Source of the DNA: Escherichia coli
GTDB lineage: Bacteria > Pseudomonadota > Gammaproteobacteria > Enterobacterales > Enterobacteriaceae
Reading direction: 5' to 3' (one strand)
Assembly (NCBI RefSeq): GCF_003019035.1
Contig: NZ_CP027447.1
Length of the DNA stretch: 64,000 nt
Under the pieces are notes generated by a model. It did not search any database. It worked only from the letters and a program-made list of their open reading frames with translations, and was not told where the DNA came from. Made by a program: the position numbers and the translations under genes. Position 1 is the stretch's first letter. Each line of letters starts with the position of its first letter. Below, piece after piece: positions 54,471 through 54,634 of the stretch.

Positions 54471-54634
54471 GCCGGATGCGCTTTGCTTATCCGGCCTACA
54501 AAATCACAGCGTGTAGGCCTGATAAGACGCGTCGGCGTCGCATCAGGCGGTGAATGCCGGATGCGCTTTGCTTATCCGGCCTACAAAATCACAGCGTGTA
54601 GGCCTGATAAGACGCGTCAGCGTCGCATCAGGCG
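54471..54634. repeat. Tandemly duplicated BIME (two ~80-bp copies of inverted REP units)
   Basis: GCCGGATGCGCTTTGCTTATCCGGCCTACAAAATCACAGCGTGTAGGCCTGATAAGACGCGTC(G/A)GCGTCGCATCAGGCG occurs twice head to tail between araA and araD. Confidence 0.7.

Follow-up and report, generated by a model that had tools for sequence, protein, structure and literature searches.

A two-unit BIME-2 array with an adjoining BoxC insert in the araA-araD spacer of Escherichia coli

The araA-araD spacer in a 64,000-nt stretch of Escherichia coli DNA (contig NZ_CP027447.1; the window) holds the BIME-2 array of that locus, an ordinary element that has long been catalogued. Almost certainly, the element consists of two tandem 85-bp units, each a y REP followed by an inverted Z2 REP, with a truncated third unit and a BoxC element by the araD ribosome-binding site. 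Its copy number would change by recombination or slippage, and it would act in the ways already proposed for REPs. Several lines of evidence bear on this reading, including the anatomy of the array, its class assignment, the alleles found across E. coli, and published work on the orthologous site in K-12.

Gene names were taken from the RefSeq annotation of identical or near-identical records, including that of E. coli SCU-301 (NZ_CP051751.1). The annotation and the open reading frames, together with the y/Z2 structure of the REPs, support the sequence-only reading that a composite REP pair (BIME) lies between araA and araD. The array is wholly contained in the transcribed 253-bp spacer (54403-54655), which in the mRNA sense is predicted to fold with an energy of -126.4 kcal/mol (z = -5.5 relative to shuffled sequences). 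A promoter scan of the spacer yielded no promoter-like site, and no intrinsic-terminator-like site (a G+C-rich hairpin followed by a T run) was found on either strand of the region 54200-54900. An internal araD promoter or an intrinsic terminator in the spacer was considered and is unsupported by these scans. The features of the region are collected in Table 1.

Table 1. Coordinates of genes, repeat units and the BoxC insert at the araA-araD spacer (positions in the window)
Feature	Coordinates	Strand	Basis
araD, L-ribulose-5-phosphate 4-epimerase, 231 aa, ATG at 54402; downstream of the array in the araBAD mRNA	53707-54402	-	ORF; RefSeq annotation of the identical SCU-301 record
araD Shine-Dalgarno, mRNA-strand AGGAG, 10 nt before the AUG	54408-54412	-	sequence; predicted unpaired probability 0.41
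BoxC/PIT/TMECO triplex-motif repeat with short flanks, core consensus 54426-54460	54413-54469	-	published consensus match; allele comparison
Unit 1 y-type REP, TGCCGGATGCGCTTTGCTTATCCGGCCTAC	54470-54499	+	Y consensus of PMC2817692 Table 1; canonical Y of REP325
Unit 1 linker, 13 nt, AAAATCACAGCGT, between the CTAC and GTAG feet	54500-54512	none	
Unit 1 Z2-type REP, inverted, plus strand GTAGGCCTGATAAGACGCGTCGGCGTCGCATCAGGCG, G variant at 54534	54513-54549	-	Z2 consensus, PMC2817692 Table 1
Inter-unit spacer, GTGAA	54550-54554	none	allele comparison
Unit 2 y-type REP, same sequence as unit 1 y REP	54555-54584	+	
Unit 2 linker, 13 nt, same sequence as unit 1 linker	54585-54597	none	
Unit 2 Z2-type REP, A variant at 54619	54598-54634	-	
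Truncated REP, start of a further unit, TTACACACCTGATGCGGCTAC, adjoining the araA stop codon	54635-54655	none	inverted repeat; RNA fold; allele comparison
araA, L-arabinose isomerase, stop codon 54656-58; upstream of the array in the mRNA	54656-56158	-	ORF; RefSeq annotation
araB	56169-57869	-	

Tandem Repeats Finder reports a single array at 54468-54634, with a period of 85, 2.0 copies, 98% matches, no indels, and a score of 327. A repeat search places the 85-nt copies head to tail at 54468-54552 and 54553-54637, with 96% identity. The order within a unit is a y-type REP, the linker, an inverted Z2 REP (GTAGGCCTGATAAGACGCGTC(G/A)GCGTCGCATCAGGCG), and the GTGAA spacer. The 79-nt cores of the two units differ solely by the G at 54534 versus the A at 54619, and two more differences fall at the unit ends when the full 85-nt period is compared (GTG at 54550-52 versus TTA at 54635-37). 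The sequence-only reading had described two nearly identical, head-to-tail copies of about 80 bp with one G/A difference; within 54471-54634 the single difference and the tandem arrangement are both as described, whereas the period is 85 nt and the array runs on as a truncated REP to 54655. The REP core GCCKGATGCG occurs nine times in the window, against 0.51 occurrences expected by chance.

The stem of the y REP is of the Y type (GCCGGATGCG...CTTATCCGGC), but the apex falls 5 nt short of that in a canonical Y such as the one in REP325. At the araA end, the truncated REP and the neighboring Z2 arm form a 12-bp hairpin (arms 54624-35 and 54639-50) that starts 7 nt past the araA UAA stop on the mRNA. 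This hairpin (54624-54650) is perfectly paired in the window and has a C/U mismatch in K-12 (ACCGGATG against ACCTGATG), with alleles carrying either T or G at that position. Other REP pairs are present in the window. At 25084-25165 is one BIME-2-like unit, in which a 12-nt linker joins a canonical 35-nt Y REP to an inverted Z2 REP; the canonical Y apex is present in this unit and missing from the ara y REPs. Further REP-like pairs lie at 20627-20709, which is degenerate, and at 11645-11697, which is unusually short (ctgccggatgcagcctac ... gtaggccgcatccggca), as the apical part of each REP seems to be missing.

In BIME-2 elements, a short linker joins y and Z2 REPs, and the copies are multiple and in tandem (Ton-Hoang et al. 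2012). The class was assigned by the Bachellier/Gilson classification as summarised in PMC3333891, and the REPs were typed from the Y and Z2 consensus sequences of Nunvar 2010 (Table 1; PMC2817692). The array displays alternating inverted y and Z2 REPs, the latter matching both the Z2 consensus and the Z2 of REP325, and they are joined by a short (13-nt) S linker rather than the long, IHF-binding L linker of BIME-1. It is extragenic, its tandem copies are variable in number (two here; one, two, or three elsewhere in E. coli), and the GTAG/CTAC feet are present in both units (CCTAC at 54495-99 and 54580-84; GTAGG at 54513-17 and 54598-602). Given the shorter apex of the y REP, assignment to strict BIME-2 rather than to an "atypical BIME" rests on the published catalogue of the K-12 orthologue.

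On the araD side of the array is a BoxC/TMECO insert that the sequence-only reading passed over. Where K-12-type alleles have 3 nt (TCG), the window has 57 nt (54413-54469), which adds 54 bp net. On the minus strand, 54426-54460 match exactly the consensus CCCTCNCCCN3-6GGGNGAGGGN3GGGNGAGGG, which had no match in 100 shuffled sequences; both this TMECO consensus and the capacity of the repeat for an intrastrand triplex have been described (Holder et al. 2015; PMC4666352). The ara copy is of type B with a CCG loop, and the element lies 13 nt upstream of the araD Shine-Dalgarno. The insertion was not clean, since an extra GAGAGG lies beside the Shine-Dalgarno. Of 5,426 complete E. coli genomes, 1,564 (∼29%) carry BoxC at this position; K-12 lacks it. 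The element is also dispersed, multi-copy and intergenic: an E. coli genome has 12 related places at the median and 26 at most. The window has a second exact match to the TMECO/BoxC consensus (59967-60001, minus strand), of type A with a TTA loop. This copy lies just downstream of a 254-aa ORF (59172-59936), which we take to be yabI-like from its position beside araC.

Variation across E. coli was surveyed by spacer length, taken as the span of the match to a query of the araD and araA flanks only. A flank-only query is preferable because counts based on match coverage are confounded when overlapping pieces of a single unit are joined. In a sample of 59 genomes, drawn at even steps through 5,398 matches, the most frequent spacer is 284 bp with three units (25 genomes), followed by 168 bp with one unit plus BoxC (17), 199 bp with two units (9), and 114 bp with one unit (7). 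The 253-bp spacer of the window, with two units plus BoxC, is found once (SCU-301). The sequences of 13 alleles bear out this arithmetic from length to composition. Two- and three-unit arrays are the majority state at the locus in this sample, and only the combination of two units with BoxC is rare: searches ranked for full one-piece matches found it in SCU-301 alone among the 5,426 complete genomes. An Escherichia cryptic-clade genome has three units. The comparison between strains that the sequence-only reading had proposed agrees with its statement that copy number varies, from one to three units, K-12 having three. To our knowledge, these are the first allele frequencies for the locus, covering one, two, and three units with and without BoxC, and the rare 253-bp allele links two common ones.

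How the window allele arose can be approached through the junction between its units. The unit 1 junction, GGCG-GTGAA-TGCC, and the G variant recur unchanged in the first unit of A25, TUM12368, CFSAN061771, D8, and UPEC 536, which have 199- or 284-bp alleles. Both are missing from 168-bp alleles, and the junction is also missing from one-unit alleles. Because the junction and the G variant are common to other multi-unit alleles, the two-unit state appears to be inherited. The "duplication" of the sequence-only reading therefore stands as a description of a tandem two-unit state but not as a fresh event. If recombination within the 66 nt that are identical in the units removed one of them from the window allele, the product would be exactly the 168-bp allele, a match which suggests that this common allele may be a deletion derivative of the window allele. 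Over 400 nt of the araD-side flank, the window haplotype differs by 3 SNPs from LR-28, which has a 168-bp allele, and by 3 from TUM12368, which has a 199-bp allele. By parsimony over about a dozen alleles, as distinct from a phylogeny, the most economical and most likely order would be a 199-bp allele, BoxC insertion to give the 253-bp allele, and then loss of one unit to give the 168-bp allele.

Two other accounts of the two-unit state have to be weighed. One is a recent, strain-specific duplication of the single unit of the 168-bp allele. Consistent with this account, the two units are near-identical, the window allele is unique in the genome collection, the linker variant CACAG is common to the window and 168-bp alleles, and the nearest flanks are closest to those of 168-bp alleles, LR-28 differing by 1 SNP over the first 250 nt of the araA-side flank. 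However, duplication of the 168-bp allele would yield a junction made of its own sequence, whereas the observed GTGAA and G variant are those of A25, TUM12368, D8, and UPEC 536. It is improbable that three substitutions would restore a junction that already existed, and the reverse event, deletion, yields the 168-bp allele exactly, so that a new duplication is quite unlikely. The other account is an assembly artefact in which one 85-bp unit was mistakenly doubled. As the 253-bp allele is known from only one of the 5,426 complete genomes, there is no independent assembly of it. Yet the copies left by an artefactual expansion would be identical, and no such error could create a junction already present in unrelated multi-unit alleles. 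Neither the G at 54534 in unit 1 nor the junction GGCGGTGAATGCC is found in the one-unit 168-bp allele. Moreover, the array is merely 170 bp long, a length that ordinary reads span, and two- or three-unit arrays are the usual state of the locus; an artefact is barely credible. An inherited two-unit array is the reading adopted below.

In the proposed mechanism, the near-identical units would recombine unequally or slip against one another, with a shift in copy number as the result, and strand transfer by TnpAREP (RAYT), which has been seen in vitro on the K-12 locus, may add to this change. At the DNA level, two gyrase sites would be expected in the window allele by analogy with the K-12 orthologue, which is cleaved in vivo. 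At the RNA level, by analogy with REP325, the REP hairpins are probably a barrier to 3′-exonucleases that stabilises the upstream araBA segment, and probably also a partial attenuator of read-through into araD. The first hairpin past the araA stop could also damp araA translation termination. Hairpins 15 nt or less from a stop codon are reported to lower translation of the upstream gene, and the 7-nt distance at araA falls within this range. The suggestion of the sequence-only reading that the array affects mRNA processing or the stability of the araD segment is plausible on the same analogy. Among the papers searched there was no experiment on araBAD mRNA decay, attenuation, the AraA:AraD ratio, or the araA-araD spacer directly.

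An effect of copy number or BoxC on the accessibility of the araD ribosome-binding site was also considered and dropped. Predicted accessibility is 0.34-0.46 across all seven alleles compared (one, two, or three units, with and without BoxC), which suggests no obvious influence of copy number on translation initiation.

The araA-araD spacer was also compared in 41 other Enterobacteriaceae species, in which it is 47-284 nt long and contains a stable hairpin-forming element in every case. The elements belong to different families: 19 species have REP pairs, 10 have BoxC-like elements (accompanied by a REP in one of them), 6 have T-run hairpins, and the rest have other single hairpins. This species set derives from a contig scan with a pattern from the 5′ coding region of araD and is without representatives of E. 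coli, E. albertii, and E. fergusonii, although the window matches the pattern; the closest outgroup covered is one cryptic-clade Escherichia. Some spacers are compound, with two BoxC-like elements and a REP in Kluyvera ascorbata and three tandem BoxC-like elements in Enterobacter sp. ENT03. One contig labelled Chryseobacterium sp. 18061 bears REPs of the enterobacterial type, and probably reflects contamination or mislabelling. With a hairpin in every species, the site may be one that tolerates such elements, or structure may be selected there. A stronger proposal, which we consider unlikely, is that a conserved "slot" needs a stable RNA or DNA hairpin and has been filled independently by different lineages from whichever structured repeats each possessed, with the E. 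coli alleles tuning the AraA:AraD ratio or local supercoiling. If this were true, the number of units would set the ratio of the two enzymes, or would set supercoiling via the number of gyrase sites. L-Ribulose-5-phosphate is toxic, which gives the AraA:AraD ratio its weight.

Whether the array does anything for the operon is a separate question from its identity. It may be selfish or neutral DNA that persists and varies in copy number through recombination and the dynamics of REPs and RAYT, and that has no effect of consequence on either araBAD expression or DNA topology. In natural E. coli, one-, two-, and three-unit alleles are all common, whether BoxC is there or not, so none can be strongly deleterious, and the uniform predicted accessibility of the araD ribosome-binding site fits neutrality as well. 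Published observations point the same way, since the effects of REPs vary widely and depend on context (bioRxiv 10.64898/2026.03.23.713779) and TMECO/PIT elements had neither promoter nor terminator activity in earlier tests (PMC4666352). Set against this are the in vivo cleavage of the K-12 ara BIME-2 by gyrase (Sutormin et al. 2019) and the recurrence of a stable hairpin, of one family or another, in 41 of 41 other species. A purely neutral array is therefore doubtful, though a real possibility. Far less probable is that the repeat encodes a separate, naRNA4-like small RNA with a trans-acting role at the nucleoid. An Rfam scan gave naRNA4 hits alone, all of them sub-threshold. The best match to the naRNA4 model (RF02564) lies at 54516-54581 on the minus strand, with a score of 57.4 bits (E = 5e-9), and might be taken to favor such an RNA. 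However, the score does not reach the gathering threshold of 59.5, and the model was built from one Y/Z2 unit of REP325 and so matches any similar BIME-2 unit; the match reflects this common composition. Furthermore, neither REP325 nor naRNA4 gave measurable nucleoid compaction (bioRxiv 10.64898/2026.03.23.713779). The reading retained is that of a BIME-2 array with the REP roles proposed above.

REP and BIME arrays entered the literature in the 1980s and 1990s, and for this locus the array, its class, its polymorphism, and its activity at the DNA level are all published already. The discovery value of the window allele is accordingly small, as the locus already figures in published gyrase mapping and TnpAREP biochemistry. 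The natural variants are nevertheless ready for use in testing REP copy number as a tuner of intra-operon expression in araBAD, a classic inducible system.

Among known systems, the REP of malE-malF resembles the ara array in placing hairpins in the transcribed spacer of a sugar-utilisation operon, where they are expected to block 3′-5′ exonucleases, an expectation for which Higgins (1988) and Khemici & Carpousis (2004) are the cited sources. It differs in locus and in REP composition.

The closest comparison is the araD-araA BIME-2 of K-12 MG1655, which has the same orthologous site and flanking genes, the same y/Z2 units with an 85-nt period, and a truncated terminal REP. It differs in having three units without BoxC in a 284-bp spacer, as opposed to two units and a 54-bp net gain from BoxC in 253 bp. 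Point differences include the linker (CGCAG in K-12 versus CACAG in the window), the junction (GTTGAA versus GGTGAA), and some positions in the terminal REP. Gyrase mapping lists this element as "BIMEs2 66566-66813 <araD-<araA", with three cleavage sites under ciprofloxacin, with or without rifampicin, and credits two cuts at it to Espeli & Boccard 1997 (Sutormin et al. 2019, Table DS3). The raw list of that study places sites at 66663 and 66748, a spacing of 85 nt that equals the unit period. The K-12 ara sites in its supplement are 66656/66663, 66748, and 66826. The site at ∼66826 is much stronger and lies near the truncated terminal REP beside the araA stop in K-12; the window sequence there differs by one compensatory base (ACCTGATGCGG against ACCGGATGCGG). 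In vitro, oligonucleotides of the MG1655 araD-A BIME (B315 and B316) undergo TnpAREP cleavage and strand transfer that adds REP units, and the copy number of BIME-2 at individual loci differs between strains (Ton-Hoang et al. 2012).

The BoxC insert can be compared with the 23 TMECO copies described in MG1655 (Holder et al. 2015; PMC4666352). The ara copy is not among these, as K-12 is without it, and it differs from them in being intra-operon and near a Shine-Dalgarno.

REP325, the BIME-2 between yjdM and yjdN and the source of naRNA4, is likewise an intra-operon tandem Y/Z2 array between co-oriented genes, and its Z2 REP is ∼89% identical to that of ara. On the other hand, its period is 100 nt, it has 5.8 copies and longer linkers, and its Y is the canonical 35-nt form. 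REP325 makes the upstream mRNA more stable and, in a partly Rho-dependent manner, attenuates the gene downstream (bioRxiv 10.64898/2026.03.23.713779), and it is this behavior that the RNA-level roles proposed for the ara array would parallel.
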